A stretch of 64,000 nucleotides of DNA from Paraspadella gotoi. Its lineage: Eukaryota > Animalia > Chaetognatha. Positions 26,275 to 59,979 of the stretch are shown in pieces (within the stretch, counting starts at the first letter, position 1; every line of letters starts with the position of its first letter). The notes below the pieces were generated by a model. The model saw only the letters and a program-made list of their open reading frames with translations, had not been told where the DNA came from and searched no databases. Location: the NCBI GenBank assembly GCA_051294375.1, contig CM119271.1:5118724-5182723 (forward strand). The letters run 5' to 3'. A program made the position numbers and the translations under genes.

Positions 26275-26525
26275 TTTTTGTTAGCAAAAACCTCAGCCAC
26301 TAATATATACAAAGGCATTGAGGGAGAATCTCCCTGCCTTAATCCTCTATTAACCATTATTTCTTCTGACCAATGACCATTAACTAAAATTCTACTATTC
26401 ACCTTCTTATGTTCGACCCAAAGCCATATTTTTCCAATGCCTTAAAAACAAAACTATGCTCAACCCTATCAAAACATTTTTCAAGATCTAAGAATATTAA
26501 GGCTCCCTCTTTATTATTCAATTCA
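26275..26525 (-). mobile_element. L1/Tx1-like LINE reverse transcriptase fragment
   Basis: GALIFLDLEKCFDRVEHSFVFKALEKYGFG and (other frame) SRILVNGHWSEEIMVNRGLRQGDSPSMPLYILVAEVFANKI. Confidence 0.88.
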
Positions 26526-28300
26526 AAGAGTGGATTGGCATATATCTGGTACATCCTCTCTATGTCCCATTTAAACTGTCCATCTTTGCACAATGATTGA
26601 AGGAACCAGCACTCCCACTGCTGGAAGCCTCGGGAGACACGAGTGTCCCAACCTGCGATATCTTCTGATATAAACTGCATTTGGCTTTTCCACAAACTCT
26701 CCCTTCCAGATCGAAATTTGGTTGAGAGAAAATCTCTATAGTCATACAATGGCAATCCAGATACACTGAATGGCATCATCTTAAGAAATCGTCCAACATC
26801 TCCAAAAATCCTACATTCCAACAACCTCATGGATGCTGACATGAACCAGATAAGGCGACTCCCTTTCTTCTGATGAGAAGTGCAGTCCATTTTTTTCTCT
26901 TTTTTCCCTGTCGTGTTGAAAACAGCTCCTTTCGGTACACCTGTCCTCATTCTCTTCTCCTTGTCTTGAACTATCTCAATCCAATCCTCTCTATCTAACA
27001 GGTCACCCATGTCCTTTCCATAATGAGCATCTTGCTTACCAAGAGCACCCCTACGGTTTGCTGCTATCTTCATCTCTTCCCATGGAGTCCTACCCAGAAC
27101 AAATCCTTTCTTTCGGCAATAGTTGCGCAAACCCTCATAGCATTTACCCACATACTTTCAATGGGGATGATTTTCACGCGGGAGTGTATCCACAGTGGAG
27201 GACAGAATTTTTAGAGATAAATAATTCGAGACCAAAGTAAAATGAATGTGAATTTATTTTAGCATAACATCGAGAATAAAATAACGACTTTTATATGAAC
27301 TACTTTGTTTACCAAAGTAGGAATGTGAAAGGGAATGGAATTTTAGGCCGAGAAATATTATTGACATTTTTGCAATTTACTGAATTCTTTCCCACAATCT
27401 TCACTCGGCCATGCTACTAAAATTTCAAAAAACAAAATAATATTTCATAATATGATACTATAAATTTTCTCATTGATAAAGAAATACAAAATCGTTTTGA
27501 ATTGTTTAATTAAAATGTGTGAAATAAAAATGATTAAAGCAGTAATTTGACGAATTAAGGAAAATGATGAATTGCGTCTTTTGTTTTTTTTGGCGATCAC
27601 ACGTGTGATACAACCTTCACTCCACCTTCTTCTTGAAGACATCATAAGTGCTTGTAAGTGGTTGTACTCGTAATCTTATAAAACTGAAATGACCTCAGAT
27701 GATTAGCCATAGAACCAATCAACGCCATGACATAACTATTCTTCACTCCACCTTCAGACCCCCTAGAAGCCACAAACCAGCGCTTAATCTCCTTCATAAA
27801 GTGAGTTATTCGCCTCGAAGGATGAACAACTTCACCATGCTCCTCTTCCTTGATACTCTCAGAGTAATCTGGTTGTTCAAGCACAGTTCCCCCTGCTTAG
27901 CTGGGACCACCGTTTGCCACTGTGGCTCCCCAACTTCTATCAGATCAGTCTTATTGTACTTTTGATATCAGCAGCAGTAACTTCAGCTGTAACCTCATGC
28001 AAAATGCCTTTACCGGTTGACAAAAAATACATCTCAAAATTCGAGTACTCACTGGTTTGCAACCTCACCAATATTCCTCGACCAGTTAATACCTGCCAAC
28101 TTTTAAGCAGAGCCAGGATTCCAAGGGCAGAGGATTTTCACAGCAAAATTAGCCGTAGGGATTTTCTCAAACCATGGTGTCAACTTTGACAGAAGTCGGA
28201 AATTTCTCTCACCCTTCCCCTTGAGAGTACGCTCAGATTCCCCACCATCAAATGCCAAAAAAGAAACGTACCTTGGTGAGTACTCAGAAAAATCACCTTC
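26526..28300 (-). other. Endogenous flavivirus-like element: NS5 methyltransferase through RdRp motif A
   Basis: FDGGES..FAVKILCPW..GILVRLQTSEYSNFEMYFLS (MTase); YDVFKKK|VDTLP; AANRRGALG; FNTTGKKEKK..KGSRLIWFM (motif F); DIAGWDTRVS (motif A). Confidence 0.93.
27194..27621. mobile_element. 428-bp insertion in the NS5 element (solo LTR or MITE)
   Basis: 4-bp TSD CCAC (27190-27193, 27622-27625); termini AGTGGAGG...CCTTCACT. Confidence 0.75.
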
Positions 28301-28599
28301 AAATCATTGTATTCTAGTTGAGTAAATAAATCAAACATTTTGATGTGAATCGTATCGAAAAGCTTTTTACAATGCTTATCAGGATTGTTTGATTTTACAT
28401 TTACAGTAGTTACTTTTTTAGAATTAATTAAAAACTAAGATATAATAACGATAAAAATGAGTATATTAAATTATAAAAACAATGAGACAAAAATCAATGA
28501 TTAATTAAATATATACAATTACCTAAAAAAATTAACCAACATAAAAAACCCTTGATTTTATTAAAAGAATAAGAAAATTTTTAAAATTAAGGGAAATAT

Positions 28600-30128: not shown

Positions 30129-30496
30129 GAAAAAATGCTGTCAATCACAGTAAAAAACTGTTTCCTATGGTCCATGATTAGTCTTTTATTTTTATACGCC
30201 ACTTCTTCTTTGTTTCCAGAGCTGACAGTTAGTTCTTTCAAATCTTTAATTTCACTAAAACGCCTGTCTTTGTTGCGTATATCGCCGAACTTGTATATCG
30301 GATATGCAACCCTTATTGTTTATCTTTTCATCATAGATCAACGTGCTAAATTCGTTTTGCACATTTCGAAAATGTTTCATCATTGGCACAAAGTTTTTAG
30401 AAAAAATTTGGTTTACGAGAAAAAACTAGCTGCTGATTATTTTTTTGCTTAGCTGACTGCTTGGATGACTGGCCATTGATAAAAAAAAGTATCATT

Positions 30497-31189: not shown

Positions 31190-31929
31190 GGTTTATAGAT
31201 GTAGATACAAAGAATACATTTTTTACAATTATTTTTACAACCGTTGCGAAATCCTTCTGAATAGAAGTAGAATTAAAAAGAGAAGTTAATTCCTTGAAGT
31301 TTTTTTTATTTTTAGCAAATAGACAACAAAAAAAATTATCCATCAAGGATTGGAATTCGCTTAGAAAGAGGTATACCGTCCCCAAGTTCAACATGACGGT
31401 CTTTGTTTGTCCAGTGGTTGACGTGAAATGGTACAAACTTTGGAAAATATATAATTTTTTATTAATATTTTTTATAAAGATAGACTAATAAATAACAAAA
31501 CTAAAGTACTGCAATTGGATGCTGGTTCTGGCCACTGGCGAAACTTGGTTCGGCGCCTTCCAATACGATAGAGCCATTGACAGAAAGCGGGAGATAAAAA
31601 TTATATCTCTCGTCACATTGTTGTAGCCCGATGTCTCTCAGATACTAATATATGTATAAATAATTTTTTATTTTATATATTATCCCTTGTTCTAACCACA
31701 AAATAAAAAGCTCACCTTTGAAAATTATCGATGTTGGTACGTAGATGATCTACATACCGATGGTACAGCGCGTCCAGCTCTTCAAATGTGAGATTAAGCT
31801 TATAGACAGTGATCGGAGAAGGGGCCGATGATGAAGAGGCGCCCGACCCGGAATCGTATTTGTCTTTCTTAATCACCAGATGCATCGGCTTACGCGTAAC
31901 CACCGCATATGGTGATAGTGGAATCGTCA

Positions 31930-36120: not shown

Positions 36121-37609
36121 AGAGAGTACTAAAAGCCGGGAGAAACGGGGTCCGATTCAAACACACTTTGTCTTTTTATTTCTTTCTCGCTATCTCTATC
36201 TCTCTTTTGATTTTCTCTTGCTCTCTCTTTTATTTGAACTCAGCGAACTCGTTGAAGTCGAGATAAGAGATCTTGAGATCTTTTGTTTAAAATTATTGAG
36301 GTTACTTAAGTACATCTACGAACCAAGGTATAATTATATTATCTTTTGTTTTTCGTTTTCTTTGACTCGAATTATCTTTTTAAGTACAATCTTTTAATTA
36401 CTCTCTCTCTTTCTCTCTCTCTCTCTCTTTTTCTCGATCTTTCTCCCTGTTAATTTTGCACGTGAATCACACCCGGATTTTTGAAAATGGAANNNNNNNN
36501 NNNNNNNNNNNNNNNNNTTGAGGATTTGAGTAAATACAAACATTAAACATTTTGATGTGAATCGTATCTAAAAGCTTTTTACAATGCTTATCAGGATTGT
36601 TTGATTTGACATTTACAGTAGTTACTTTTTTAGATTTAATTAAAAACTAAGATATAATAACGTTAAAAATGAGTATATTAAATTATAAAAACAACGACAC
36701 AAAAATCAATGATTAATTAAATATATACAATTATTTAAAAAATTAGCCAGCGTAAAAAACCCTTGATTTTATTAAAAGAATAAGAAAATTAGGGAAATAT
36801 TTAATTAAACGATTTAAGAGAAGAATTAATTAAAGAGAGCTGGTGATGTCAAAAAGCACATCATCATCATCTTCATTTAATTCTTCTCCTAAATCGTTTA
36901 ATTCAATATTTCCCTTTAAATTAATTTGACTTAATCGGGGGTTTTTGGACGCTGGCTAATTTTTTGGGGTAGGTATAAAAGATGAAAACATGTTGACTTT
37001 GTGGGATGCTAGGGGTGGGAAAACTATCTCCTCCGGTTCTTCTTCCTCTTTGTCTTCATTTAAAATATTTGACGATTTTAATTGTTTTATTTCTTTACAT
37101 TTTCTTTACCATTTTAAAAATAATAATAATAATAAAACTTAAAATAACAATTAAAATCATCAAATTACCTAGAGAAAGAGTTAGTATTATCCAATTTGAA
37201 GTAGAGTTGGACGCTGGAATGGGGTAGATGAGAAGGAGGAGGAACTCGCCTCTGAGGTCGCCTTTGACGCCAAAGACGTCGCTGGGGTCGATGTTATTGA
37301 GATTGTTTTGTTTACCGGCGACGTCATAAACGTCGGCGGCCTGGACGAGATAGATGGGATGGAAGATTCCGGTGACGTCAAGGACCCGTTTTCCTTGACA
37401 ATGACGTCACCGGAGTAGTTTTATCCTTTTGCACCCTCGGGGACGACGCCGAGGGTGCTGAGGATGTAGATAAGGAACTTGCCGCCGGAGCATTTGTGCT
37501 CAACGGCGCAGGAGCCTTTGACGTTGTACTCGACGAAGATCTTGGCGCTGGAGCGCTTGTGCTCAACGGCGCCGGAGCCTTTGATGTTGTAGACAAAGAG
37601 CTCGGCGCC
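36121..37609 (+). mobile_element. Left half of another element copy (TIR type B + mucin gene 3' part on -)
   Basis: agagagtactaaaagccggg.gaaacggggtccgattcaaacacac; colinear with 17380-18750. Confidence 0.8.
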
Positions 37610-37852
37610 AATCCTTGGATTCGGCCCAAGCTTCATTGGTCAAGTCATCCTTCCCAGGTGCTGCCGACATGCTCATCTTGGCAAATATTTCATCCACAGT
37701 TCGACAAGGCATGTACTTCACAATCCTACTCAATCCCGATCTATAAGAAACGGGAACATACTGCTGGGAACAAAATTCAACATCCTCCAAGTGATAATGG
37801 ATCACACTAGGAGCATCCAATGGCATATCCTTACGGACAAACCCATGTCATT
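37610..37852 (-). other. Flavivirus-like NS5 RdRp fragment (motifs D-E/thumb)
   Basis: NDMGFVRKD..EDVEFCS..MPCRTVDEIFAK..EAWARIQG (cf. dengue NDMGKVRKD..QVPFCSH..VPCRNQDELIGR). Confidence 0.85.
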
Positions 37853-38010
37853 AGAGAGATAATAATAAACGGGATTGGAGCTTGATCCAGAACCCGAGGC
37901 GGGGACTGGATCACTTTCTTTAATTTTCCGTCGCTATCTCTATCTCTCTTTTAATTCTCTGTCTCTATCCCTCTCTCTCTGATTAAAGTTCGATCTTGAG
38001 TTTAATTGCA
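37853..38010 (+). mobile_element. Polinton-like terminus (further copies start at 39576, 40135, 41689, 43427, 43974)
   Basis: AGAGA(GA)TAATAA.AAACGGG start; each abuts a sharply truncated ORF. Confidence 0.8.
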
Positions 38011-38015
38011 GGTGT

Positions 38016-38566
38016 TTATTTCACATGAATGTTATTTTTTAGGTAAACATGATTGACAAACAGCACCACAATTTTCACAATGATTGGGATACAAAGCAGC
38101 AATATTGTAAAATTGATAAATGATAAAATCAAGAAATTTTTGATGTTAGTTAGTCCTTGGATTTGAATAAAAGAAAGTTTTTTTTCAATGACTGCATTGT
38201 TGGATTCATTCATTAATTCTGCGGGTGGATAATATCCGTATGGTTTGATGATTAACTCGGTTTCATCTTCTAACGTCAGGTCCATGGTAAGTTTGATTTC
38301 AAAGTATTTTCTTCATAGACAAAAGTGTCTTCTGCTTCGAAGGTTGTGCAATCGAAGTTATCAGGATCACAGAAGAACTCGTACAGTTTATCGAAAGGTC
38401 CATTTTTAACTAAATGCTTTAGTTCTCTGAATGGTATTTGAATCGAGCACATAGCAAAGATTGGTTCTCTCTGATGAATTTGCACGAACTTGACTTTCTT
38501 GTTATTCATTGCACAGAAATAAACGTCTTCGCAAATCTCGAAGGCCTTTCCCTTTTTAATTTCCAT
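38016..38566 (-). pseudogene. TIR-adjacent element gene (frameshifted); copy at 41853-42403
   Basis: MEIKKGKAFEICED..DLTLEDETELIIKPYGYYPP..; Cys-rich tail shared with 23728-24060. Confidence 0.6.
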
Positions 38567-41445
38567 TTTACTTTAATTAAGAAACAAAATTGAAAAATCA
38601 TATAATTAAACAAATCAAAAACGCAAATCAATACAATTATTTACAATGATTTTACTATTCTAAATCTAAATCAATACATATTTATAATTGAACAATAAGG
38701 GGGAGCATCCATGATGGCAAAAACTCCCCCCTCTTTGTCACTCGAGTCTACCTCCTCACCCATCCTCACCAACTCCTCATCATCTTCAATCAACACTCTC
38801 CTCAACTCCATCACTCCTTCCCTCACCCTAATCTTCTCGGGCTCTCGGGTACATCGTTCTCCCCGATGTGATGCAGGTGTTTGGGTTTACCCACATCACA
38901 CGATGAGAGATCCGTCTCGTAGAGGCTGATGAAAATATAGAGAAAAAGTTAGTTTGAATTGTAAGTTTTAAAAATAAAGTTTTATAATCTTACATGGAGA
39001 TTAGACCTTCTACATATAGTAGGTCTTGCGCGTTTGCCCGGTCGGTCTTGTTGACCGGGCGCCCCATGAAGAATGATGCCCTTAGGAGGCACCATTGGGT
39101 TGGGGGATCATGGGGCCGCAGGAGTAGGGGAAATTTTTTTCCTCCTCCCCGATTACGTAATCTTCCATCCTCTCAAAAACATACATCTTCTCAGAGATGT
39201 ATGTTTTAAGTCTTTAAGTCTTTAACGCTTTCTAGGCAAACCATGTCTGGGACATGGTTTGCCATAGCTTCTTCATGAAGCTTTTTCCAATCGATATCTG
39301 CCATCTGTTAATATAAATTTTTACATTCAATCAGATTCATAGAGTTCGAGAATCTTATTACAATGATCAATAAAAAAATTAAGAAAAACGCTAATGTTGA
39401 TAAAACTTTTAACTACGAAATTTAAACAAGAATATTCTGGGTCTGGTCCTCCAAGAAACAAGATATCAAAATCTTTAGCATCGTCTTTAATCCATAGTGT
39501 TGCCGTTAGTCCTTCGCATAGTTTACACTCGAATTTTTAGAAGTTGGGAGATCGATTTGGGTTGAAAAGAAAATCAGAGATAATAAAAAACGGGGTCTGC
39601 AGCTTGATGTAGAACCGGGGCGGGGACTGGAGCAATTTCTTTAATTTTCCATCGCTATCTCTCTCTTTTAATTTTCTCTCGCTATCCCTCTCTGATTAAA
39701 GTTCGATCTTGAGTTTAATCGCAGGTGTTTATTTCACATGGTTTTTTACAAAGTAAACAAAAGTAAACACATCACAATATTATTTTTTAGGTAAACAAGA
39801 TTGACAAACAGCACCACAATTTTCACAATGATTGGGATACAAAGCAGCAATATTGTAAAATTGATAAATGATAAAATCAAGAAATTTTTCAACATTGGTT
39901 AATCCTTGGATTTGAATTAAAGAAAGTTTTTTTTCAATGACTGCATTGTTGGATTCATTCATTAATTCTGCGGGTGGATAATATCCATATGGTTTGATGA
40001 TTAACACGGTTTCATCTTCCAACGTCAGGTCCATGGTAAGTTTGATTCAAAGTATTTTCCTTCATAGACAAAAGTGTCTTCCGCTTCGAAGCTTGTACAA
40101 TCGAAGTTATCGGGATCACAGAAGAACTCATACAAGAGATAATAAAAAACGGGGTCTGCAGCTTGACCTAGAATTCGGACGGGGACTGCAGCTTGATCCA
40201 AAACCTGACACGGGGACTAGATCACTTTCCTTTTTAATTCCCTTTAATTTCCTATCGCTATCTCTATCTCTCTTTTAATTCTCCGTCGCTATCCCTCTCT
40301 GATTTTAAACTCGAGTGGTCGATCTGAAAATACGTAACCGTTTTTGAATTCGAATTATTGATAATACTTAAGTACAAATGACGAATTTTTACCCTGAGAA
40401 TTTTCCATATGATGAACTAGGATTTCGATTACATTTACAGTAGATACTGTTTACAATGAATTAAACACCTTTGTTATGACTACGAGAAATAATATAATTA
40501 TTAACATTTATACAGTGAACATAAAAAAAACAGAACAAGAACATACAATTACCCAAAAAATTGACCACCGTAAAAAACCATAGATTAACCTAAAAATAAA
40601 TTTGGTTCAACAAAGGGAAAATATAATATTTTCAAATATGATTTAAGAGAAGAATTAATTAAAGAGAGCTGGTGATGTCAAAAAGCACATCATCATCATC
40701 TTCATTTAATTCTTCTCCTAAATCGTTTAATTCAATATTTCCCTTTAAATTAATTTGACTTAATCGGGGGTTTTTGGACGCTGGCTAATTTTTTGGGGGT
40801 AGGTATAAAAGATGAAAACATGTTGACTTTGTGGGATGCTAGGGGTGGGAAAACTATCTCCTCCGGTTCTTCTTCCTCTTTGTCTTCATTTAAAATATTT
40901 GACGATTTTAATTGTTTTATTTCTTTTACATTTTTCTTTACCATTTTAAAAATAATAATAATAATAAAACTTAAAATAACAATTAAAATCATCAAATTAC
41001 CTAGAGAAAGAGTTAGTATTATCCAATTTGAAGTAGAGTTGGACGCTGGGAATGGGGTAGATGAGAAGGAGGAGGAACTCGCCTCTGAGGTCGCCTTTGA
41101 CGCCAATGACGTCGCTGGGGTCGATGTTATTGAGATTGTTTTGTTTACCGGCGACGTCATAAACGTCGGCGGCCTGGACGAGATAGATGGGATGGAAGAT
41201 TCCGGTGACGTCAAGGACCCGTTTTCCTTGGACAATGACGTCACCGGAGTAGTTTTATCCTTTTGCACCCTCGGGGACGACGCCGAGGGTGCTGAGGATG
41301 TAGATAAGGAACTTGCCGCCGGAGCATTTGTGCTCAACGGCGCAGGAGCCTTTGACGTTGTACTCGACGAAGATCTTGGCGCTGGAGCGCTTGTGCTCAA
41401 CGGCGCCGGAGCCTTTGATGTTGTAGACAAAGAGCTCGGCGCCAA

Positions 41446-41688
41446 TCCTTGGATTCGGGCCCAAGCTTCATTGGTCAAGTCATCCTTCCCAGGTGCTGCC
41501 GACATGCTCATCTTGGCAAATATTTCATCCACAGTTCGACAAGGCATGTACTTCACAATCCTACTCAATCCCGATCTATAAGAAACGGGAACATACTGCT
41601 GGGAACAAAATTCAACATCCTCCAAGTGATAATGGATCACACTAGGAGCATCCAATGGCATATCCTTACGGACAAACCCCATGTCATT
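41446..41688 (-). other. Flavivirus-like NS5 fragment (duplicate of 37610-37852), in frame with the mucin-TM ORF 40750-41751
   Basis: Same motifs; ..EAWARIQG|LAPSSLSTTSKAP.. Confidence 0.85.
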
Positions 41689-44446
41689 AGAGAGATAATA
41701 ATAAACGGGGATTGGAGCTTGATCCAGAACCCGAGGCGGGGACTGGATCACTTTCTTTAATTTTCCGTCGCTATCTCTATCTCTCTTTTAATTCTCTGTC
41801 TCTATCCCTCTCTCTCTGATTAAAGTTCGATCTTGAGTTTAATTGCAGGTGTTTATTTCACATGAATGTTATTTTTTAGGTAAACATGATTGACAAACAG
41901 CACCACAATTTTCACAATGATTGGGATACAAAGCAGCAATATTGTAAAATTGATAAATGATAAAATCAAGAAATTTTTGATGTTAGTTAGTCCTTGGATT
42001 TGAATAAAAGAAAGTTTTTTTTCAATGACTGCATTGTTGGATTCATTCATTAATTCTGCGGGTGGATAATATCCGTATGGTTTGATGATTAACTCGGTTT
42101 CATCTTCTAACGTCAGGTCCATGGTAAGTTTGATTTCAAAGTATTTTCTTCATAGACAAAAGTGTCTTCTGCTTCGAAGGTTGTGCAATCGAAGTTATCA
42201 GGATCACAGAAGAACTCGTACAGTTTATCGAAAGGTCCATTTTTAACTAAATGCTTTAGTTCTCTGAATGGTATTTGAATCGAGCACATAGCAAAGATTG
42301 GTTCTCTCTGATGAATTTGCACGAACTTGACTTTCTTGTTATTCATTGCACAGAAATAAACGTCTTCGCAAATCTCGAAGGCCTTTCCCTTTTTAATTTC
42401 CATTTTACTTTAATTAAGAAACAAAATTGAAAAATCATATAATTAAACAAATCAAAAACGCAAATCAATACAATTATTTACAATGATTTTACTATTCTAA
42501 ATCTAAATCAATACATATTTATAATTGAACAATAAGGGGGAGCATCCATGATGGCAAAAACTCCCCCCTCTTTGTCACTCGAGTCTACCTCCTCACCCAT
42601 CCTCACCAACTCCTCATCATCTTCAATCAACACTCTCCTCAACTCCATCACTCCTTCCCTCACCCTAATCTTCTCGGGCTCTCGGGTACATCGTTCCTCC
42701 CCGATGTGATGCAGGTGTTTGGGTTTACCCACATCACACGATGAGAGATCCGTCTCGTAGAGGCTGATGAAAATATAGAGAAAAAGTTAGTTTGAATTGT
42801 AAGTTTTAAAAATAAAGTTTTATAATCTTACATGGAGATTAGACCTTCTACATATAGTAGAAGGTCTTGCGCGTTTGCCCGGTCGGTCTTGTTGACCGGG
42901 CGCCCCATGAAGAATGATGCCCTTAGGAGGCACCATTGGGGTTGGGGGATCATGGGGCCGCAGGAGTAGGGGAAATTTTTTTCCTCCTCCCCGATTACGT
43001 AATCTTCCATCCTCTCAAAAACATACATCTTCTCAGAGATGTATGTTTTTAAGTCTTTAAGTCTTTAAGTCTTTAACGCTTTCTAGGCAAACCATGTCTG
43101 GGACATGGTTTGCCATAGCTTCTTCATGAAGCTTTTTCCAATCGATATCTGCCATCTGTTAATATAAATTTTTACATTCAATCAGATTCATAGAGTTCGA
43201 GAATCTTATTACAATGATCAATAAAAAAATTAAGAAAAACGCTAATGTTGATAAAACTTTTAACTACGAAATTTAAACAAGAATATTCTGGGTCTGGTCC
43301 TCCAAGAAACAAGATATCAAAATCTTTAGCATCGTCTTTAATCCATAGTGTTGCCGTTAGTCCTTCGCATAGTTTACACTCGAATTTTTAGAAGTTGGGA
43401 GATCGATTTGGGTTGAAAAGAAAATCAGAGATAATAAAAAACGGGGTCTGCAGCTTGATGTAGAACCCGGGGCGGGGACTGGAGCAATTTCTTTAATTTT
43501 CCATCGCTATCTCTCTCTTTTAATTTTCTCTCGCTATCCCTCTCTGATTAAAGTTCGATCTTGAGTTTAATCGCAGGTGTTTATTTCACATGGTTTTTTA
43601 CAAAGTAAACAAAAGTAAACACATCACAATATTATTTTTTAGGTAAACAAGATTGACAAACAGCACCACAATTTTCACAATGATTGGGATACAAAGCAGC
43701 AATATTGTAAAATTGATAAATGATAAAATCAAGAAATTTTTCAACATTGGTTAATCCTTGGATTTGAATTAAAGAAAGTTTTTTTTCAATGACTGCTTGG
43801 ATTCATTCATTAATTCTGCGGGTGGATAATATCCATATGGTTTGATGATTAACACGGTTTCATCTTCCAACGTCAGGTCCATGGTAAGTTGTATTTTCCT
43901 TCATAGACAAAAGTGTCTTCCGCTTCGAAGCTTGTACAATCGAAGTTATCGGGATCACAGAAGAACTCATACAAGAGATAATAAAAAACGGGGTCTGCAG
44001 CTTGACCTAGAACTTCGGACGGGGACTGCAGCTTGATCCAAAACCTGACACGGGGACTAGATCACTTTCCTTTTTAATTCCCTTTAATTTCCTATCGCTA
44101 TCTCTATCTCTCTTTTAATTCTCCGTCGCTATCCCTCTCTGATTTTAAACTCGAGTGGTCGATCTGAAAATACGTAACCGTTTTTGAATTCGAATTATTG
44201 ATAATACTTAAGTACAAATGACGAATTTTTACCCTGAGAATTTTCCATATGATGAACTAGGATTTCGATTACATTTACAGTAGATACTGTTTACAATGAA
44301 TTAAACACCTTTGTTATGACTACGAGAAATAATATAATTATTAACATTTATACAGTGAACATAAAAAAAACAGAACAAGAACATACAATTACCCAAAAAA
44401 TTGACCACCGTAAAAAACCATAGATTAACCTAAAAATAAATTTGGT

Positions 44447-46460
44447 TCAACAAAGGGAAAATATAATATTTTCAAATATATCCCAAGAATTAAATGAAAA
44501 AGAAGATGACGATAATGTACTTTTTGATATCAAAATGTTGTGATGATCAAAAAGTACATTATCGTCATCTTCATTTTCATTTAATTCTTGGGAAAGATTT
44601 GAAAATTCAATATTTTCTCTTGGTTGAACCAAATTGATTTGGCTTAACCTAGGGTTTTTAACCGTGGCCAATTTTTTGGGTTGGGGAAAAATGGGGAGAA
44701 CATATTTACACGGGGGGAGGCTTCGGCATCTTCTTCTTCTTCTTCTATCCTATGTAATGTTTGTTTGACTTTAGTTTTTTTCTCTCATTTGAATTTTGAA
44801 TTTACACTTTTAACTTTTTTAAAAATAACGATAACGAAAATTAAAATAAAAACTAAAATTAACAAATTTCTCCCAGTCCAATTGTCATCAAAATCCAATT
44901 TGAACTATGAAAAGAATAAAAAAACCTGAATTAAGAAAAACGGAAATATGATGATAACATTTAACAATATAAAATATTCACATTAATTTTTTTACTTGTT
45001 CTTGATCACTTGATTTGGATCCTGCCAACGCCGTGACGTCACCGCAGTTTTTGGCGCCCTCTGGTGACGTCATGGCCATGGACGGCGTCGTCTTTGATCC
45101 CGGTGACGTCGCCGATGTAAGATGGCATTGACATCCGGCGACGTCTCAAACGTTGATATGACGATGATGATTGATGACCTCGCTGAAGAATTTTTAGGGG
45201 AGGAGATGAGGGGCCGCCGGTGACGTCGTCGCCCATGGAATAAGGTCCGTGTGACGTCACCGACGCGATGGAGGAGGAGGGAAGGGAATTTGTAGACGAC
45301 AGGACGGATGACGGCCGTGGAGGAGTAGGAGACAGGAGGGCATTGAGGATGACGGACGGAGGATGGAATGGAGGGCATTGAGGGATGACGACCCGGAGGA
45401 TGGAACGGAGGGCATTGAGGATGCGGGACGGAGGGAGGGCGGACCGGAGGATGAGACGGAAGTGGCTTACCGGTGACGTCGTTGCCCATTGAGAAAAGGT
45501 CTGTGACGTCACCGGCGTGATGGAGGAGGGTTGCGAGACCGCGTTCGGGCGATTGCGGCGGACGTATTACGGACGACGTAGACGGGAGGACGGGATGTTG
45601 TTTGGGGTGGTCGGTGACGTCGTTGCCACTGATGAAATAAAAATGGTCCGTGACGTCACCGACGCCGTATTCACGGACGAAAATGAGAATTTAGCCGGTG
45701 ACGTTGTTGTTGGATGGAAGGTGGTTTGCGCCATCACTGGCGTATTCCTTGATGCTTCATTCGTCCGTGAAGATGTCCATGTCGCCGTCGTCGCCCATTT
45801 TGCTAATCAAACCATTGGTTCAAATGGGTTGATAGCGATATGGTGGTGGGGTTGAGGGTTTACGTAAGATGGGAAAATTACTTGTTGGGCGATGTTAAAT
45901 GGGAGTAAATGGGAATTAATTTGGACTAAATGGGCTGGGAAGGTTATAGGTAAAATGGTGGGGGTAAATAGATCGTGGTAATAGGCGGTGGGTTCTATAT
46001 ACTACAAGGCGCGGGTTGGGTTCAATGTTAACGAATCGTCCTAGGGTTGGAGTGTTATTTTGGTTATTGTCGTCCGCGAGCCATAATGCGCTATCGGGAT
46101 GGGGAATTACCATTTTATACCCGCGGTATGAATTTTTTTTTTAGTTTAGTTATCAAGAAAGAGTAGTATGAGGTAAGATGGAAGAGGAAAAAGAAGAAAG
46201 TAAAAACAAGTGGGAATAGACTTTCATCTTGGTTATTTTACACGATAAAAAAAAGAAAAAAATTTTAGGGTATTTCTCGTACATTTTGCGGGAAAATCAT
46301 AAAAGAGTAATACTGTATGAGTAATAACAATCTGTTTCGAACTTTACTTCTCAGCGGCGTTGTTCCAGTGAATGAACGCCGTCGCGGTTTAATTGCGATT
46401 TAGTAATTACAAGAATAGAAAGAGAAGAAACAAAGAAAGTTATTTAAAAGACATTTTTTG
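44447..46460 (-). pseudogene. Mucin-like TM gene copy (second subtype, like 11100-12582)
   Basis: S/T/P exon, TM remnant, ATVKNPRLSQINL tail, upstream HHHIAINPFEP ORF remnant. Confidence 0.6.
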
Positions 46461-47183
46461 AAAGAAAGATAGAGAGAGAGCGAAGAAAGAGAAGGTAAGG
46501 TAAAGGAACGAAGGCGCTCTCGGAACGCCGTTCCTCCCGAGTGATACAGGTGTTTGGCTTTCCTGTATCACACGATGAGTGATCTGTCTCGTAGAGGCTG
46601 ATGAAAAATATAGAGAAAAGTTAGTTTGAATTGTAAAATTGTAAAAAAATAAGTTTTATAATTCTTACATGGAGATTAGACCTTCTACATATAATAGAAG
46701 GTCTTGTGCGTTTGCCGGTCGGTCTTGTATGACCGGGCGCCCATGAAAAATATGCCCTTAGAGGCACCATTGAGAACACGGCATCATGGGGCCGCACGAG
46801 TAGGGGAAATTTTCTTTCCTCCTCTTCTACCAGATGATTCTCCATCTCTTAAATCATACATCTCCTCAGAGATGTATTGATTTAATTGAGTTTTCACACT
46901 TTCCAGGGCAAACCANNNNNNNNNNNNNNNNNNNNNNNNNNNNNNNNNNNNNNNNNNNNNNNNNNNNNNNNNNNNNNNNNNNNNNNNNNNNNNNNNNNNN
47001 NNNNNNNNNNNNNNNNNNNNNNNNNNNNNNNNNNNNNNNNNNNNNNNNNNNNNNNNNNNNNNNNNNNNNNNNNNNNNNNNNNNNNNNNNNNNNNNNNNNN
47101 TGTCTGGGACATGGTTTGCCATAGCTTCCTCGTGAAGCTTCTTCCAATCTATGTCATTCATCTGTTAATATAAATTTTTACAT

Positions 47184-47615
47184 TCAATCAAATTCATAGA
47201 GTTCGAGAATCTCATTACAATGATCGATAAAAAAAATAAGAAAAACGCTAATGTTGATAAAACTTTTAACCACAAAATTTGAACAAGAATATTCTGGGTC
47301 TGGTCCTCCAAGAAACAAGATGTCAAAATCTTTAGCATCGTCTTTAACCCATAGTGTTGCCATTAGTCCTTTGCATAGTTTACACTCGAATTTTTGGAAG
47401 TTGGGAGATCGATTTGGGTTGAAAAGAAAATCCCTCAAGGATTTTAATCCTACAATGTTTGCCTTTAGATTTTCGACCGTCCACATGAAACTCTTGACAA
47501 TTTTCATTCGATTGTCTTTTTTAACATATTTGATGTTAATGACCGCATCCTTGTTAAAGGAAATGGTCATTCCATGAAAAAGTTTAACAACGTCTCCAAC
47601 TTTTAGTTTATCCAT
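47184..47615 (-). CDS. Element hypothetical protein (143 aa); truncated copies at 39330-39575 and 43175-43426
   Basis: Intact ATG ORF; the other copies are cut by a TIR at gaaaagaaaatc. Confidence 0.7.
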   Translation of the reverse strand: MDKLKVGDVVKLFHGMTISFNKDAVINIKYVKKDNRMKIVKSFMWTVENLKANIVGLKSLRDFLFNPNRSPNFQKFECKLCKGLMATLWVKDDAKDFDILFLGGPDPEYSCSNFVVKSFINISVFLIFFIDHCNEILELYEFD

Positions 47616-47846
47616 TACTTAATTTGATAAAAAAATTTAAAAATTGTAAACACAACCCATTGATGACGATGATCATAATTAAAATATAACAAAGACTACT
47701 ACATTAACATTGAAGATGATCAAATATAACAAAGACTACTACATTACATTTTTGATAAAAATTGTTTCTTTAAATTTCACACGCGAATTTATTAAATTTT
47801 TTAAAAACTAAAAATCCCCTTTTTAACACTAATAAATAAAAAAATC

Positions 47847-48407
47847 TTAATTCAAAACATTCCCCCTTACCCAAATCTTACTCCTATTAAACATCTTAAA
47901 CCCACTCATCCCACCCCCAAAAGAGTTTTTCGATGTAAAAATCGTCATCGTCAGCGTCGTTGTCGTAGTATTGGCACTTGAAGATGGCCGTTTTCGACTA
48001 GCCATCTCCAAGGCCTCCACCGTCGCCCTCGTCGCCTCCGCAGCCACCACCGCCGATCCTACCGCCCTCGCTGCCCGCGCCACCGCTTTTGCGGTTTTGC
48101 AGGAGCGAGGGGGTCTAATCGGCGGAGATGCTGCTTCCGCCGCCGCCACTGCCGCATCCTCGATGACGGCGTCTACCGTGAAGGTCGTCGCCGCCACCGC
48201 CTCCGAAGTCACATCGGAGATTCCATCGCCGACGTCTCCTCGAACCTCCCAGAGGCCGTCTTCAGATGCGTTATGGAGGGGGGTAAGCGAGAGAGGGAAA
48301 ACTCCCTCACCCCCCTCCAGCGCATCCTCAGACCGAAGTCGTCGCCTCCGTCTCCGCTGCTTGGCGCTCCAACGCCGAACGCTGATGAAGGCGATGACGA
48401 CGACGAT
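47847..48407 (-). pseudogene. GC-rich TM + cytoplasmic-tail fragment of unknown gene
   Basis: IIVVVIAFISVRRWSAKQRRRRRR stop-transfer pattern. Confidence 0.4.
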
Positions 48408-48556
48408 GATGTACAATCCATTTTATTTTCCTTCTTACCCGTGGTATTGAAAACAGCCCCCTTGGGGACACCCAACCTCATTCTCTTCTCCTTTTCCTGC
48501 ACAATCTCTATCCAATCTTCTCGGTCCAGCAAGTCACCCATATCTTTCCCATATCT
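48408..48556 (-). other. Second, divergent flavivirus-like NS5 fragment
   Basis: YGKDMGDLLDREDWIEIVQEKEKRMRLGVPKGAVFNTTGKKENKMDCT; protein almost identical to 26880-27022 but third codon positions largely differ. Confidence 0.9.
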
Positions 48557-48747
48557 TTCCTTTGGACCATTCGGCCCACTATTGGCAAATAATATCTAAA
48601 ATAGGAGTCGAGAAAAGAGATATAGTCAAACATTACTATTTTTGTTATTCTGATAATTTGTACTATTATTAAATTTAGAAATATTTTTCGTGTATATATT
48701 TAATCAGTTTTATCTTTTTTTAAATTAATAAAAGAGAGATAGAATAA

Positions 48748-48968
48748 GGTAACTTTGGGAGCCAACTTCCGGTTATGCTGATGACGTCATCCACATTCCA
48801 ATATGATGACGTCATCATTCTATTTATAGATTGGTGACTTCCGGTTCCGGTCACTTCCGGTTCCGGTCACTTCTGGTTCCGGTCACTTCCGGTTCCGGTC
48901 ACTTCCGGTTCCAGTCACTTCCGGTTCCAGTTACTTCCGGTTACGCTGATGACGTCACACATTCCAAT
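48748..48968. promoter_or_regulatory. Virus-like enhancer/origin array of ACTTCCGG (ETS-type) and TGACGTCA (CRE-type) motifs; related stretch 8728-8795
   Basis: 16-bp unit ccggttccggtcactt repeated about six times, flanked by tgatgacgtca. Confidence 0.55.
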
Positions 48969-50563
48969 TCTCGCATAAACGCCAAGCTCCTACAATGAAG
49001 TCGGGATGAGGGTCGAACATTAACGGTTTGGTCCAATCCTGCGGTCTGTAAAATAAAAACAATTTAAATGATTAAACTATATAAAAAGAGTAATAATATT
49101 AATATTATTTTTAATTTTGACATTATTTTTAATTGTGACAATATATAAAAACCAATATAATTATTACCCCTCGCTCTCGTCCAGTAACCTCCACGCTTTT
49201 TCAAGCGTCTTCCTAGGCTCGTCCATGACGTCCCACTCCCCCGGCAGGACGACATCATCCCAAACCCAAGAGTCCCCCTGCTCTATTGGTGGGGTGAGGA
49301 ACGCTACAGTAGTCGACTCCCAATCCTCGTCCAATATCACCCCGAAAAGTTTTGTGGGCCAATAAGAGACGACATCAGAGAAATATGTTTACACCTTCTA
49401 GCCATCGGTGATAAGGATAAGCGAAGCGAACTCGAGTGTTTTAATCGAAATCCTGTGATTTTTAATCTGAATCTTGTGATTAAATTGACGAGGATACTTG
49501 AGAATAAAGATTTTGATTGATAGTCTGTTTTTTGCTGAATTAGTAGAGAAACTGAATAATCGACTGTTTTTATTTGAATAATAAACAAATGAACTTTGAT
49601 TGATAGTCTTACTGTTTTTACTGAATTAGTAAAGAAACTGAATAATTGACTATGTCTTTATTCAATAATAAACAAAATGAACGAACGATGAAACTAAAAA
49701 AAACAAAAAGATCAAATAGTATTATATAATTTTCTATCAAAAATCGTTTCCTCTTCTTCTCCTTCCTCCCTTTCACTTTCTTCAATTTTTCTAATTTCAT
49801 TGACCCATTCCCCCAATCTTATGCTCCTCCCTCTTCTTTCTTCTCCTCTTTCGTCCTCCTCCACGATGAAAACGTTTGTTTCTTCTATTTTGCCGTAGAT
49901 AATAGATAGAGATAGATAGATATGAGTGTTTTAATCGGAATCCTATGATTAAATCTGTTTTTAATCTTAATCTTGTGATTAAATTGACGGAGATACTTGA
50001 GAATAAAGATTTCGACTGTTAGTATTACTGTTTTTTGTTGAATTAGTAAAGATACTGAACAAATCGCTCGATAGTCTTATTGTTTTCGCTAAATTAGTAG
50101 AGATGCTCAATAATAGACAACTATGATGAAATAAAAGTTAGCGATTGGTAAACAATAAACAGTCTCGAACCGAGTCTCGCCGATTGCCGACTTAAACAAT
50201 CAGATTGCCAAAAAAAACTCGCTAGTTTTTCTAATCGGTTCATAACAGCTGGGCTGATTCCACGACTCAAACCTTTTTCGCTCGTAACCTCCGGGTCCTA
50301 ATTCCTATCTAAGTTCAACGGGCAAAAAAAATAGCGATTTCATGGGCAGGTCTTCACGTGAAATTGTTACGTGGAAAATACTTAGCCGGCTTTTTGTGAC
50401 CGTTGAAACCATTGAACCTTTTTACCTTTGTCAGATGATAAATATGCACAGTGTTTTAAATTAGTTTTCTAGTTATATTTTCACCATTGTTAAAAAAAAT
50501 TTTATATTTATCAATCATTAAAACGAATTATATCAATTTAATTCCCATAATTTGTTTTTTTTT

Positions 50564-51348: not shown

Positions 51349-53057
51349 CTTTCATCCTTCCTATCACGGATCTGTTGTGGTCCCTCCATCGTTTCAATAC
51401 GTCCAAACGGTCCAAATTTTCTTTCCAATAGGGGTGAGTATCTTCGGGACTGAAAAAAAAAAAGATGGATGATGGTAGGCTGGTATAGACTTTTTCTTTT
51501 TTACGCAAATAATAGTCATTCTTACTAATCTTTCACGTCTAGTATGAAGCAAAGATGAGCCCAATCTCGCCAAAATGAAGCCAACGGACTTTTGTAACGA
51601 AACGCCAATACGAAAGAATCCTAATTCCCATAATAAATTTTAATTAATTTCTAATAATTTTACATTAATAAAAATTATTATTTTTTTTTTTTTTTTGCGC
51701 TTCTAACCGTATCGTTTTGATGCACGCGCGCGCTAACGTCCGTTCGAGCTTCGTTAAATACTCGTCTCACGTTGAAATGATAGAAAGAAATATTGCAAAA
51801 TTTCGCGTTTTCCAAGACGATCGCTTAATTAATTAATTAATTAATTAATTAAAATTTTTTTAACAAAAAAAAAAAAAATTTTGTAAATTTTTTTTTAATT
51901 TTTTTTTGTTAATTAATTAATTAATTAATTAATTAAAAGTAAATTTTTTTTTTATTTTTCTAACCTCCCATAATTATAGGTTTATTGAGCGTACAGACGT
52001 TTTTTTCAAACTTGATGAAGATCAAAGAATCGCTCAAAATCTTGCAAGAATGAAAATCGGCTCGGTGCATGGCTCGTTGAGCGAGGGGTTTGTCAAAGTA
52101 TAAGCGCACATTGTGTTTACCACGAACATTTTCGATACTCTGTACATAAATAATTTTATTATTAAAATTTGTTATATTATTTTAATATATTACTATACTC
52201 CCCTTTCCGTACAAGGAATTTATCAAAAGCTTGAAATGATTTTTCAAGTAGTCCGATTGGGCTTCGTTTCTCTTCCGAGTAAAATGATCCACGAAAGGTT
52301 CGATATATTTCCTTTGTTGATAGCGAAATCCCATGCTTATTTTTCGAACCTCGTATCCCAAATCGAGACACAACTTCAAAACCATATAATTAATAACGTA
52401 ATCCTTTTTTTCCCCCACGCAACATATCAATTTAGGGTAAATGCCTAATTTTATCCCATATTTTTTAGCCAATTTAACGGTGCGCGGACTCAATTCGTTT
52501 TCGGGAACTGCTCGTTTATCGGCGATGGGAGGGTAACCGCTCATAGAAGAATGCAAATGATCCGGTAAATATGTCGCATTCGACTATGAAACCGATATCC
52601 GCTTCATGGGTCCAATTTTTGTAACGACCGTCTTGGGTCATTACAAAAATTTCCGCGAGTTCCTCCGGAGAAAGACTTTTAAAATCTTTCCAGGGTACAG
52701 GGATATTTCATGGCGCGACCGTACAAATTCTAAAATAATTAAAAAATAGCTAAGAATGATAGAAAGATGAAAAGAGAAAAAAGCGACGACTACTATTATT
52801 ACCGTAAAGTCTTGATACATCAAGAAGCAACTACCGTCGTCCTCCTCGCCCCCCTCCTCTGAGGAATCGAAACCGACTTCGCGATTGTTGGCCCGAGCGT
52901 GACGTTCGGAAACGGTACAAACGCCTCCTCGTATCATTCTTTCATATGTTAAATATTGGAGGGATTCCGATTCGCTGAACAAGGGAATCTCGACTTTGGT
53001 CATCGAGAGAAAAATATCTAGTCCGATACCCGCAAAGCCGTAATAGTGGGTGGGCTT
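51349..53057 (-). pseudogene. Intron-containing protein-primed PolB, copy 2 (divergent relative of copy 1)
   Basis: IRGGVCTVSERHARANN..YQDFT^NLYG..KLLINSLYGK^SIENVR..LNKPIIMG^A..NDT^DS..DY^PEDTHPY..IGRMK^; introns 52730-52802, 52140-52202 (GG donor), 51824-51964, 51621-51707, 51450-51525. Confidence 0.92.
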
Positions 53058-54224
53058 ATCCTTATCACTGATGGCCAGAAGGTGTAAACTTATATCTCTG
53101 ACATCTCTTAATTGACGTTGAGAAGGGAGTCTGTAATGATGAACTCGATTTGTATCGAGTTCATGTGAATTTTGGTCGGCTTCATGGACGAGCCCGAAGT
53201 CAACGTTTTAGGTAAAAAAAAACTCCTCCTAGTTTGCTCATAAGTAAATGCCCCAGGATTTCTAATTAAAAAATGGGACGTTTGTTAGTACTATTGGGGA
53301 CATTTCAATGGTACTTTGCTCGTTTTCGTATTCATTGGTCAGTGGTCAATGGTCACGTTTGAATATTCGTGAGCCACCACCACCTCCTTAACACGAGTTT
53401 CGTCGTCGTCGTTGTTGTTGTCTTGACATCTTGGAATTAAATTCGAATATATTGGACCATCGTGGTCAGTTTCTCTCTCATTTGTACGATGCACTTCGAA
53501 AAACGTTGTCTCCTCTTCATTGTTGTTTGCGTTTCTAAATTCATTGTCCCACAAATACTCCCCCCTTCGTTTTCATCTTCAGAAAACGTTGATTCCCAAT
53601 CATTGTTTGAATAATAAATATTCTGACGGGTTATCTGATAATTGGTTTTTTTTTTAATTTTTATCAAGTTAGTCAAATTTTTTTTATCGTGATTGTTGAT
53701 CAGATAGTTCTTTAGTTTTTATATTGCGCCGTGAATGTGTACTGATAACAGGATTTGGCGAGAATGTGTACTGATAACACAATTTGGCGAGAATATCAAT
53801 GTCTATATCTCTATGGTTTTTTCCTATTTTTGAAAGCAGTTTCGAATTCCTCATGAAAAGTTGATAAAAGGAAATATTACTCTTTTTAGAAAATTATTTC
53901 ATTAAGTGGATCAAAATCCTAAAAAACTATTATCATTAACTTATGATTAAATTTTAGTATAAAAAATATAGTTCTTGGAATTTTTGGCTAACTTAATGAA
54001 ATAATTTTTGATTAAGACTTATATTTTTTTTGATGAGGAATTCAAATCTGCTTTCAAAACTAAAAAAAAAATATTTTAAAATTTTGACAATGTATAAATA
54101 TGGGCGTATGCGAAAATTGTAAAATTTCAAAATAATAATAATAATATAATTTAATGTTCTTTGGTCCAAGACTTCATGATTAACTATTCGAATTTTGATT
54201 TGCAACTTTCACTACGCCTTACTA

Positions 54225-56859: not shown

Positions 56860-58260
56860 GAACTATGTGGAGGAGGAAGGGAAGGAATCAAGAGAAGATG
56901 TGAGGGAGGAAGGGGAGGAATTAAGAGAAGATGTGAGGGAGGCAAGGGAGGAATTAAGAGAAGATGTGAGGGAGGAAGGGAGGAAATCAAGAGACAGATG
57001 TGACGGGAGGAAAGGGAGGACATTAAGAGACAGATGCTGAGGGAGGAAGGAGGAATTAAGAGAAAGATGTGAGGGAGGAAGGGAGGAATTAAAGAGAAGA
57101 TGTGAGGGAGAAAGGAGGAATTAAGAGAAGATGTGAGGGAGGAAGGGAGGAATTAAGAGAAGATTGTGAGGGAGTGAAAGGAATCAAGAGAAGATGTGAG
57201 GGAGGTAAGGAGCGAATTGAAGAGAAGATGTGAGGGAGGAAGGGAGGAATTAAGAGAAGATGTGAGGGAGGGAAGGGAGGAATCTAAGCAAGAAGATGTG
57301 AGGGAGGACAGGAGAATTAAGAGAAAGATGTGAGGGAGTGAAGGGAGGAATAAGAGAAGATGTGAGGAGAAGGGAGGAATTAAGAGAAGATGTGACGGGA
57401 GGAAGGAGGAATTAAGAGAAGATTTGAGGAGGCAAGGCGAGGAATAAGAGAATTAGTGAGGGAGAAAGGAGGGAATTAAGAAGAAGATGTGAGGGAGGAA
57501 GGGAGGAATTTAAGAGAAGATGTGAGGAGGAAGGGAGGAATTTAAGAGAAGATGTGAGGGAAGGAAGGGAGGGAATTAAGAGGATGTGAGGGAAGGAAGG
57601 GAGGGAATTAAGAGAACGATGTGAGGGAGGAAGGGAGGAATTAAGAGAAGATGTGAGGGAGAAGGAGAATTAAGAGAGATCGTGAGGGAGGAAGGGAGGA
57701 CATTAAGAGAAGATGTGACGGAGAAGGGAGGAATTAAGAGAAGATGTGAGGGAGGAAGGGGGATTAAGAGAAGATGTGAGGGAGGAAGGGAGGAATTAAG
57801 AGAAGATGTGAGGGAGGAACGGGAGGACATTACAGAGAAGATGTGAGGAGGAGGAGGACTTAAGAAGAGATGTGAGGGAGGAAGGGACAGGAATTAGAGA
57901 AACGATGTGAGGGAGGAAGGAGGATAGAGATGTGAGGGGAGAAGGGGGAGGAGTGGAGAAGATGTAGGGAGGGAGAATGGTAGGATAAGGAGAGAAGATG
58001 TGAGGGGAGGAAGGGAGGAATTAAGTTGAGAAGATTGTGTGAGGGAGGAAGGGAGGAATTAAGAGAAGATGTGAGGAGGAAGGGGGAATTAAGAGGATGT
58101 GAGGGAGGAAGGAGGAATTAAGAGAAGAATGTGAGGGAAGGAGGAGGAATAAGAGAAAGCATGTGAGGGAAGGGAGGAATTAAAGAAGATGTGAGGGAGG
58201 AGGAATTTAATGAGAAGATGTGAGGGAGGCAGGGAGGAATTAAGACGAAGGTGAGGAGAG
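56860..58260. repeat. Purine-rich ~32-bp minisatellite
   Basis: gagggaggaagggaggaattaagagaagatgt repeated roughly 40 times, noisy. Confidence 0.95.
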
Positions 58261-59979
58261 GAAGATAGGATAGAGCATATCTACATGTAGAGTTAAACAG
58301 GCAGGTTTTCTGGAAACGAAAGCACAAAGTAACATAATTAAGGCGGCGGTCAAAATTGAACACTTTTTATAACTTTTAATTCTCTCAAAAAAATTCCTTT
58401 TTTCCTTATTATCTACTAATCGATTTTCACTGTAACTTTTTGAATTGTTCATTGGGTTGTTGCACTGAAGCTTTTAAATATTTATTAATATATAACAAAT
58501 GACAAAAAAATTTTTTTTAAAAATTAGTTTTTTAAAGAACGGATTCCTTAGAGCTTGAAAAGTTAAATGAAAGTTAGTACTACATTTTTTTTTTAACAAT
58601 TTTGACAAGAAAATTGGGTTTAAAAACAGAAAAAACGTTAAAAAATCAATCATCATCATCATATCATTGCTGAATTTTATAGTTTTTTTTAAATTTTTAT
58701 CAAATAAATCAAAAAAATTTTTACAAATTTGTATTAATAACCTTCATCTAACTTTTAAAGCTCTATCAGAAATCCATTAAAAAACAATTGAAAAAATTAA
58801 AAAAATTTTAATTTATATAGTAATAAAATATCTTTAAATGCTTCCGTGCTTATTAATAAGATAATTTTTTTAAATTATTTTTTATTTCATATTCTCTAAC
58901 AGTCACTTTATCATTATTTATTTGATCGAGAACTTCTAAGTTTTCAACCTGTTCCGGCCTACGTAACTAATGACATACATAGCAAGAGATCGACACATAA
59001 GGAAAAGATATATATTTACATTACAGTGATTGTTAGGAAATCAATTAAGTCGCAGGCGATACAGCAAGAGAACAACAAAGTAACATGTTATAGCAGTGAG
59101 ATGTTTTTATCGGAATTGTGTTATCTTTTCTTTTTTTTGTGGGTAATTTTTTTATTATCTATAGTAGGCATTGCTTTATTTTTGTTCAGTTCATTTTAGC
59201 ATAATAGTAAATCTATAAAGTTTTTTGGTTTTTTTGGATTGTGGGTCATTCGCTGCTCGGGTTCTTGTTCGTACATTTTCCGTGTTTAGAAGTCATATGC
59301 ATGTTTTAGATAAGCTATCAATCTATCACACGAATGAAGGCATTTCCCGAAAAAACCCTGACTCAGACAGAACCTTCTTCTGTCGTGTAACAACCTCGAC
59401 CGCGACTTTTCAGGGAGAAAATAAAGATTTTGAGAAATCAAATTTGTGGCGGGAAAAAGTCGATCCTTCGATTCTGAGGTTAAAGAACCCAGGCATCTTG
59501 GAGGGAAGAAAAGTGGAGACGAAAAGAAAGGTCGAGGAGCCTATCTATTCGGTATAAAGTGAAGGGGGGAGGTAGATAGGGAAGAAAAAGAAAGTTAAGG
59601 TGTCGATGCGCAATAAAGAGAAGAGAAGAGAGAAGTGGAGAAGAAAAGAAAGGTCGAGGAGCCAATTCATTCGGTATAAAGTGAAGGGGGGGTAGAAAGG
59701 GAAGAAAAAGAAAGTTAAGGTGTCGATGCGCAATAAAGAGAAGAGAAGAGAAAGGAAGGAAGGAAGGAAGGAAAAATGAGAAAGGAGGTAGGGAAAAGAG
59801 AAGAGAAAAAGGTGAGTGACCGAGAAAAATCATTAAATGAAGAAGAGAAAAAGTATAATAGGAAAGTAATAAATAGTAATAAATAGTAAAGCCTTTATAA
59901 AATATAAGAATAGAAAATAGCGAAACAAGTAATTTTTGCAAATTTTCATAANNNNNNNNNNNNNNNNNNNNNNNNNAAA

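Follow-up and report, generated by a model that had tools for sequence, protein, structure and literature searches.

Pieces of jingmenviruses have already been described from arthropod genomes. In the tick Haemaphysalis longicornis, two EVEs (endogenous viral elements) that stem from jingmenvirus segment 2 share 79.0% nucleotide identity (PMC13155725). In Ixodes ricinus, the jingmenvirus polymerase gene was found integrated, repeated integration of viral variants was weighed, and non-LTR elements were regarded as the likely providers of reverse transcriptase (PMC9501327). The occurrence of multiple jingmenvirus insertions per host genome is in print for ticks. Endogenous jingmenvirus polymerase fragments of arthropods include EJP-Jingmen.1-Chironomus and EJP-Jingmen.2-Gerris (248 and 45, respectively, in the table of the relevant paper), and multiple loci were assumed there to reflect genome amplification rather than separate captures (PMC9752770). 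EVE clusters of Aedes are large, repeat-rich loci in which viral pieces share the polarity of adjoining retroelements and which give antisense piRNAs, and template switching has been proposed for them (PMC5497376, 10.1101/127498). Several flavivirus integration events per genome have been reported for Aedes as well (PMC8235865).

Here we compare with these systems a locus of the chaetognath Paraspadella gotoi, contained in a window of 64,000 nucleotides (GenBank assembly GCA_051294375.1, contig CM119271.1). It contains one 49-codon stretch of a jingmen-like NSP1 in two copies, a short one designated by us copy B and one that is a part of a long insertion and is designated copy A (Table 1). Like the EVEs of H. 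longicornis, these are two insertions of one segment that share a host genome and are about 78-79% identical, but here the segment is segment 1 instead of segment 2, the source is an undescribed lineage and not the tick jingmenviruses, and the insertions are 21.5 kb apart on one strand. The presence of the segment-1 polymerase as host DNA is a feature shared with I. ricinus, the variants of which are 3-6% apart and occur among individuals, whereas the copies described here are 22% apart, have saturated silent sites, lie in one haplotype and are accompanied by a virus-LINE junction. EJP-Jingmen.1-Chironomus and EJP-Jingmen.2-Gerris are endogenous polymerase fragments of similar size, and the pair of copies A and B is a case in which the assumption of amplification made in that paper fails. 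Similarly to the Aedes clusters, viral scraps lie here in a repeat-rich locus with the same polarity as the neighbouring retroelement. The Aedes captures are mostly tied to LTR elements (Ty3/gypsy, Pao Bel), while the neighbours here are a non-LTR element and polB-bearing debris. A search of a mostly open-access literature by title or abstract start revealed no paper on this host-virus pair. What is new is the virus lineage, the junction of virus and LINE, and the finding within one locus of an almost purely synonymous signature.

Table 1. Positions of viral pieces, junctions, flanks and mobile-element remains in the window.
Feature	Position	Strand	Characteristics
Three diverged unnamed coding copies	9715-10726; 21829-22961; 30140-30426	-; +; -	one inverted; third-position excess
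Second, diverged polB copy	16558-16746	-	73% identical to the copy at 52185-53207
LINE (non-LTR) reverse transcriptase fragment	26282..26525	-	244 bases, internal; shares the sense and the frame of the viral piece
Long insertion, whole	about 26526-28317	-	NSP1 parts in gene order: methyltransferase, linker, palm
Long insertion, RdRp fingers/palm	26526..27244	-	JMTV NSP1 residues ~389-619; in-frame stop at 27160; Pfam, PDB, tblastn
Copy A of the 49 codons	26876..27022	-	inside the long insertion
AT-rich high-copy host repeat inside the viral piece	27245..27626	.	roughly 400 bases; repeat match begins near 27219
Long insertion, methyltransferase/linker	27627..28317	-	stops at 27644 and 27899; spread over three reading frames
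Duplicate of the thumb piece	37584..37900	-	inside the 3.8 kb tandem duplication
Third viral piece, NSP1 thumb domain	41443..41751	-	profile positions 742-826; Pfam Flavi_NS5_thumb E 8e-7
GC-rich flank of copy B	48118..48406	.	91% identical paralogue elsewhere stops matching exactly at 48406
Copy B	48407..48553	-	jingmen-like NSP1 (49 codons), RdRp fingers; neither start nor stop; the last codon may be part of the flank
Junction, 5' of copy B	48554..48560	-	7 bases, a short tandem duplication of the beginning of copy B
High-copy host repeats beside copy B (two)	48560..48990	.	loose ends at 48560 in each of four runs; depth 230-1128
Protein-primed DNA polymerase B fragment	52185..53207	-	Pfam DNA_pol_B_2 E 1e-8

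Identity of the viral pieces

Copy B matches a profile of 30 NSP1 relatives at profile positions 488-536 (E 2e-9) and reaches up to what we take to be motif F of the RdRp. The frame around copy A matches Pfam Flavi_NS5 (E 3e-8), and the long insertion matches the solved structures of JMTV NSP1 in the PDB with E values of 6e-31 and 2e-30, as compared to 1.5e-6 for the best orthoflavivirus polymerase. The nearest database proteins are 900-1090 aa long and are encoded by contigs of 3.0-3.9 kb, which is the size of jingmenvirus segment 1. The best database matches are 45-48% identical (at most 48%), and within the shared 49-residue overlap any database protein is identical at no more than 21 of the 49 positions.

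Phylogenetic trees were constructed after 17 of 94 proteins had been left out (10 with a matched stretch of less than 170 residues and 7 cluster members), and the IQ-TREE tree took 39 of the 79 rows used in the FastTree tree. Copies A and B are sisters on a long stem, with the support of 100 (IQ-TREE, 39 rows) and 0.999 (FastTree, 79 rows), and the group that encloses them, which is devoid of any protein of at least 1200 aa, has the support of 87 and 0.94, respectively. Which jingmen-like branch lies closest to them depends on the tree; identity to JMTV and YGTV is 33-35%, and the position relative to JMTV, ALSV and YGTV, the tick-associated clade of the genus Jingmenvirus, varies with the tree as well. 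The structures, the database matches and both trees place this NSP1 nearer to jingmenviruses than to orthoflaviviruses or tamanaviruses. The gene and its domain order are the same as in the NSP1 of Jingmen tick virus, Yanggou tick virus and Hainan jingmen-like virus, to which the palm piece is 33-46% identical. These comparisons indicate that A and B are endogenous pieces of NSP1 of one undescribed jingmen-like lineage. The original prediction had spoken of an NS5 region; the NS5-like polymerase stands, with the correction that the virus belongs to the jingmen-like ones and not to the orthoflaviviruses, and the phylogeny of both pieces proposed at that time locates them as sisters inside the jingmen-like group.

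In searches of the window with 142 proteins, including monopartite polyproteins, and with the NSP1 profile, no flavi-like pieces were detected beyond those of NSP1. As concerns close relatives, 2 pattern matches in viral_contigs and 63 in metagenome_contigs were obtained, none of which was confirmed, and with the 49 residues of copy B as a query none of 7 candidates scored. According to PMC13155725, naming a jingmenvirus species needs at least four segments; the pieces found here are those of NSP1 alone.

Synonymous divergence of the two copies

In a blastn comparison of the region 48201-48800 with the window, one second strong match was found, namely an ungapped, same-strand alignment of 26877-27022 with 48408-48553 (114/146 identical, 78%; E 2e-29). 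Read in register on the minus strand, 48553-48407 and 27022-26876 comprise 49 codons (147 bases), at the nucleotide identity of 77.6% (95% interval 70-84% for 147 bases) and the amino acid identity of 94%. Homology between the copies, which are 21.5 kb apart in the same orientation, breaks off sharply at both ends, and their flanks have no homology to each other. The match had previously been drawn as extending from 48408 to 48556; the match itself is real, but its end is not, as homology stops at 48553 and the codon at 48556 differs at all three bases.

In the 49-codon register the copies differ by 3 residues (D/E, T/L, K/N), exactly those listed in the original prediction, while 30 codons are unlike and 27 of them differ in a purely synonymous manner; the statement that most codon changes are synonymous is thus correct, and all four codon examples quoted in its support are real. 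The 33 base differences in 147 bases are divided between codon positions 1, 2 and 3 as 4/1/28 (binomial P 1.5e-9), and the even spread over codon positions that had been named in advance as the contrary outcome was not seen. By the Nei-Gojobori method there are 28.8 synonymous differences per 29.3 sites and 4.2 non-synonymous differences per 117.7 sites (pN 0.035; Fisher P ~1e-26), and dS is not estimable because of saturation. Silent differences occur in 27 of the 42 residue-keeping codons that have synonyms, at the random expectation of 24.9 for local codon use and 26.6 for even use. Silent sites between A and B are saturated, neither above nor below random; a surplus of synonymous change in this overlap is not supported (27 observed vs. 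24.9 expected, P 0.30), and saturation hides any surplus.

Neutral decay was simulated by placing 33 random changes on copy A (3 x 200,000 runs). The mean number of residue changes was 20-22, the minimum was 10, and 0 of 600,000 outcomes had three or fewer. The T/L difference involves a change of all three codon bases, unlike point decay. Among 174 ungapped tblastx pairs of at least 40 codons in the region of 7-56 kb, the strongest third-position excess is that of the A/B pair. Both the codon split and the simulations bear out the earlier view that this pattern reflects purifying selection in exogenous viruses rather than neutral decay. Since the divergence arose under purifying selection in replicating viruses, A and B come from two different viral templates. 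The non-synonymous distance of 0.035 (interval 0.01-0.085) caps the decay of both copies since their capture, so neither can be very old relative to host mutation. A codon test of this kind may serve as a simple way to count true captures.

Rank of the source viruses

The rank of the difference was calibrated with published thresholds and at the protein level, for which 43 NSP1 sequences from named jingmenviruses of ticks were compared in 903 pairs (many of these share sequences and are not independent). Three differences in the 49 residues concerned were seen in 20 pairs, all of them within species and at the whole-protein identity of 88.7-99.1%, while pairs between species had at least 5 differences in these residues. 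The published lines for segment 1 are 76% nt and 88% aa for species and 83% nt for genotype, and they refer to whole segments (PMC13155725). The value of 77.6% nt for A and B falls between the genotype and species lines, although whole-segment lines are here set against only 147 bases. The best label for the sources of A and B would be two genotypes of one species, with sister species also possible given an overlap of 147 bases, and this agrees with the rank of strains originally proposed. As only 147 bases overlap, both the rank and the timing of the captures are loose. The locus likely preserves a fossil record of within-species diversity in a virus lineage that is absent from the databases searched.

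Thumb duplicate and host DNA

The NSP1 pieces follow each other along the locus out of gene order: B, thumb, thumb, and then A. Between the two thumb pieces there is no substitution and there are three single-base gaps. They are associated with a tandem duplication (36725-40998 and 40543-44868) that has a period of 3.8 kb and comprises many 300-base stretches of 100% identity, its differences being mostly gaps. The second thumb piece is a recent duplicate or an assembly artefact. The thumb pair shows what a host duplicate looks like, unlike the A/B pair.

Contigs bridge copy B and both its flanks in three samples (S2, S4, and S6), deviating in 0-2 letters over 436-513 bases. In contigs of four runs (645-1129 bases) the palm part of A has 0 differences, and the joining of A to its LINE flank is bridged by a contig in one sample (S2). 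These bridging contigs come from runs presumed to be DNA. The long copy is carried by 9 of the 11 listed runs (6 sample codes, 3 studies, one organism; two of these runs seem to be a single data set), and the 2 runs of other organisms contain next to no words of it. A and B are host DNA, i.e., non-retroviral EVEs, and the insertions are heritable, being found in several samples. No contig spanning A to B was found among public contigs, and the 21.5 kb linkage rests on one assembly.

Junctions and flanks

The long insertion is broken, with three in-frame stops, two frame changes (one near 28115-28119 and one between 27905 and 27980, both in the methyltransferase/linker part), and one repeat insertion. 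Contigs over 27388-28395 show 0-3 differences and no gaps, so the breaks in A are not assembly errors. Depth is 236-31775 on the inserted repeat vs. 7-163 on the viral parts. As the NSP1 coordinates are continuous across this repeat, it presumably arrived after the virus.

At the junction 26525/26526 the virus passes in sense and in frame into the LINE fragment. The fragment matches Pfam RVT_1 with E values of 8e-5 to 6e-4, which is below the curated cut-off, and is devoid of 25 bases that other copies have. Multi-copy contigs match 26282-26525 and then diverge exactly at 26525. A LINE 3' end and a target-site duplication were looked for at the long copy and were not found. The long copy may have arisen by a template switch, in which a LINE reverse transcriptase passed from the RNA of the element to the viral segment-1 RNA; this would leave the virus 5' and the LINE 3' in the same sense, and such an order at the junction would be expected from the established direction of reverse transcription. 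The junction could instead be a later rearrangement, as the LINE piece is an internal fragment of 244 bases without a 3' end and with a Pfam score below the cut-off. The LINE fragment at 26282-26525 fused to the viral palm piece could in itself tell something about how RNA viruses get captured, and it may constitute a further instance of capture by the enzyme of a non-LTR element.

Copy B is surrounded differently, by two other repeats, A having the LINE and one repeat at its ends. The 7-base repeat at its 5' junction likely results from slippage or templated insertion. Other copies of the first of the two flanking repeats continue as a different sequence at 48560, and the second repeat (48735-48990) contains a 16-bp tandem unit in 6.9 copies and three TGACGTCA words. 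On the other side, a paralogous contig jumps from 48406 to 49689, which fits a 1282-base insert beginning with B, although the far side comprises only 21 letters. Seven bases repeated directly at 48403 and 49685 were considered as a target-site duplication of such an insert, but they are a lead only, the same word occurring 5 times in 46500-50000. The different flanks and junctions of copy B suggest that its origin was separate from that of A.

Origin of the two copies

The explanation that we consider probable, judging from the sequence features described above, is that A and B result from two separate events of reverse transcription and integration, from two genotypes and at least one of them by a LINE enzyme, in a candidate piRNA-cluster-type locus. 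The two genotypes would have reached silent-site saturation before either capture, and the short copy B would have arisen in an event of its own, separate from that of A. Small RNAs made from a plus-strand transcript of the locus would be antisense to the virus; a protein product of A or B is unlikely. The host would then have been in contact with this virus over a time sufficient for the entry into its germline of two genotypes with saturated silent sites. The original prediction had spoken of independent captures into one locus in the same orientation. Of this, the orientation is confirmed, and the independence and the capture in one locus are not established, as co-infection or relocation could give the same picture.

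Relocation would mean that the two captures took place elsewhere and that one piece was later moved or copied here by a repeat-driven rearrangement, the locus collecting viral pieces instead of being a primary capture site. The shuffled duplications that fill the window, the NSP1 pieces lying out of gene order, the nature of B as a 147-base scrap between repeats, and the contig skipping from 48406 to 49689 are all in line with such a history, and the fragmentation and shuffling of long integrations has been proposed for Aedes (PMC8235865). No further copy of either viral piece at 80-85% likeness was present among the records listed, which argues weakly against it, and on the whole we regard relocation as unlikely, though worth keeping in mind.

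Co-infection of one host, with cDNAs of both genotypes integrated together or close in time, would account for the same strand of A and B at the distance of 21.5 kb and for the near invariance of both across runs (0-2 letters in B, 0 in A). Against it stand the different flanking repeats and junction types of the two copies. They also differ in damage, as the three stops, two frame changes and repeat insertion of A have no counterpart in B, but by our estimate the density of such lesions in A predicts no more than about 0.5 for a stretch of 147 bases, so this difference gives no dating. A common entry of this kind has, in our opinion, a slim chance.

One capture followed by host duplication, with both copies under purifying selection as host genes or neutrally diverged, is hardly credible despite the proximity and shared orientation that are typical of tandem duplication and are seen in the thumb piece, because neutral divergence is excluded by the simulation, selection at the host level would need two genes whereas A is broken by stops, frame changes and an insertion and B has 49 codons and no start, the flanks share no homology, and the true duplicate, the thumb, has no substitution at all. 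An assembly artefact or contamination with viral RNA, which the noisy repeats and the near-identical 3.8 kb tandem duplication of the window might bring to mind, is just as improbable in the face of independent contigs that bridge B (S2, S4, S6) and A with its LINE flank (S2) and reproduce the breaks in A without gaps.

Two separate captures, the reading preferred here, might be given a functional sense if the locus were a heritable antiviral archive, in which the second capture renewed the memory after silent-site drift, like a CRISPR array taking a new spacer. Every 26-base window of the A/B overlap contains at least 3 mismatches, and the longest exact run is 18, so under such an archive the new genotype would not be silenced any more with the older copy as guide. 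The surplus of silent change that active escape predicts was not seen (P 0.30), but saturation would mask it. We consider the archive doubtful; if the locus makes piRNAs, it would permit asking whether archives refresh as the virus drifts.

Surroundings of the locus

The window is AT-rich and contains microsatellites and many shuffled repeats. The locus was compared with Pfam ORF by ORF (47 + 122 stretches) and in 9 short read-throughs, and in the ORF scans most of the repeated ORFs of the window had no named family. PHROGs applied to 30 ORFs named the DNA polymerase alone, and Rfam gave 0 matches. The differences between the two polB fragments are divided by codon position as 11/2/38, and the fragments likely come from separately evolved Polinton-like elements, a family label that we infer. 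The other coding pairs, unnamed, differ by 18/8/46 and 8/8/28, and all these pairs have the excess at third positions seen in the A/B pair, which fits the view that the locus collected copies that had evolved separately; the regions 9715-10726, 21829-22961 and 30140-30426 have no Pfam or PHROG match.

In the region of 7-56 kb the coding strand can be read for 9 pieces, and for 8 of them it is the minus strand (a hand tally; two-sided P 0.04, the pieces being possibly dependent on each other), and the single plus-strand mobile-element piece is that at 21829-22961. Such a composition has been described for EVE-rich piRNA loci of Aedes (PMC5497376, 10.1101/127498), and the present locus, a repeat graveyard with a strand bias, is by analogy a candidate piRNA-cluster-type locus.

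Several smaller features were also recorded. A RING-finger fragment (32322-32579, minus strand), which is below the Pfam cut-off, probably belongs to the same mobile-element debris, and an open frame of 231 codons without a Pfam or PHROG match (30500-31192, minus strand) lies beside the unnamed repeated genes. Imperfect palindromes at 28581-28769, 36737-36968, 40551-40797 and 44391-44681 recur in many repeat units. A purine-rich 32-bp tandem array occupies 56865-58264 in 43.5 noisy copies, and an Ig-domain exon at 316-843 on the plus strand probably belongs to a host gene.
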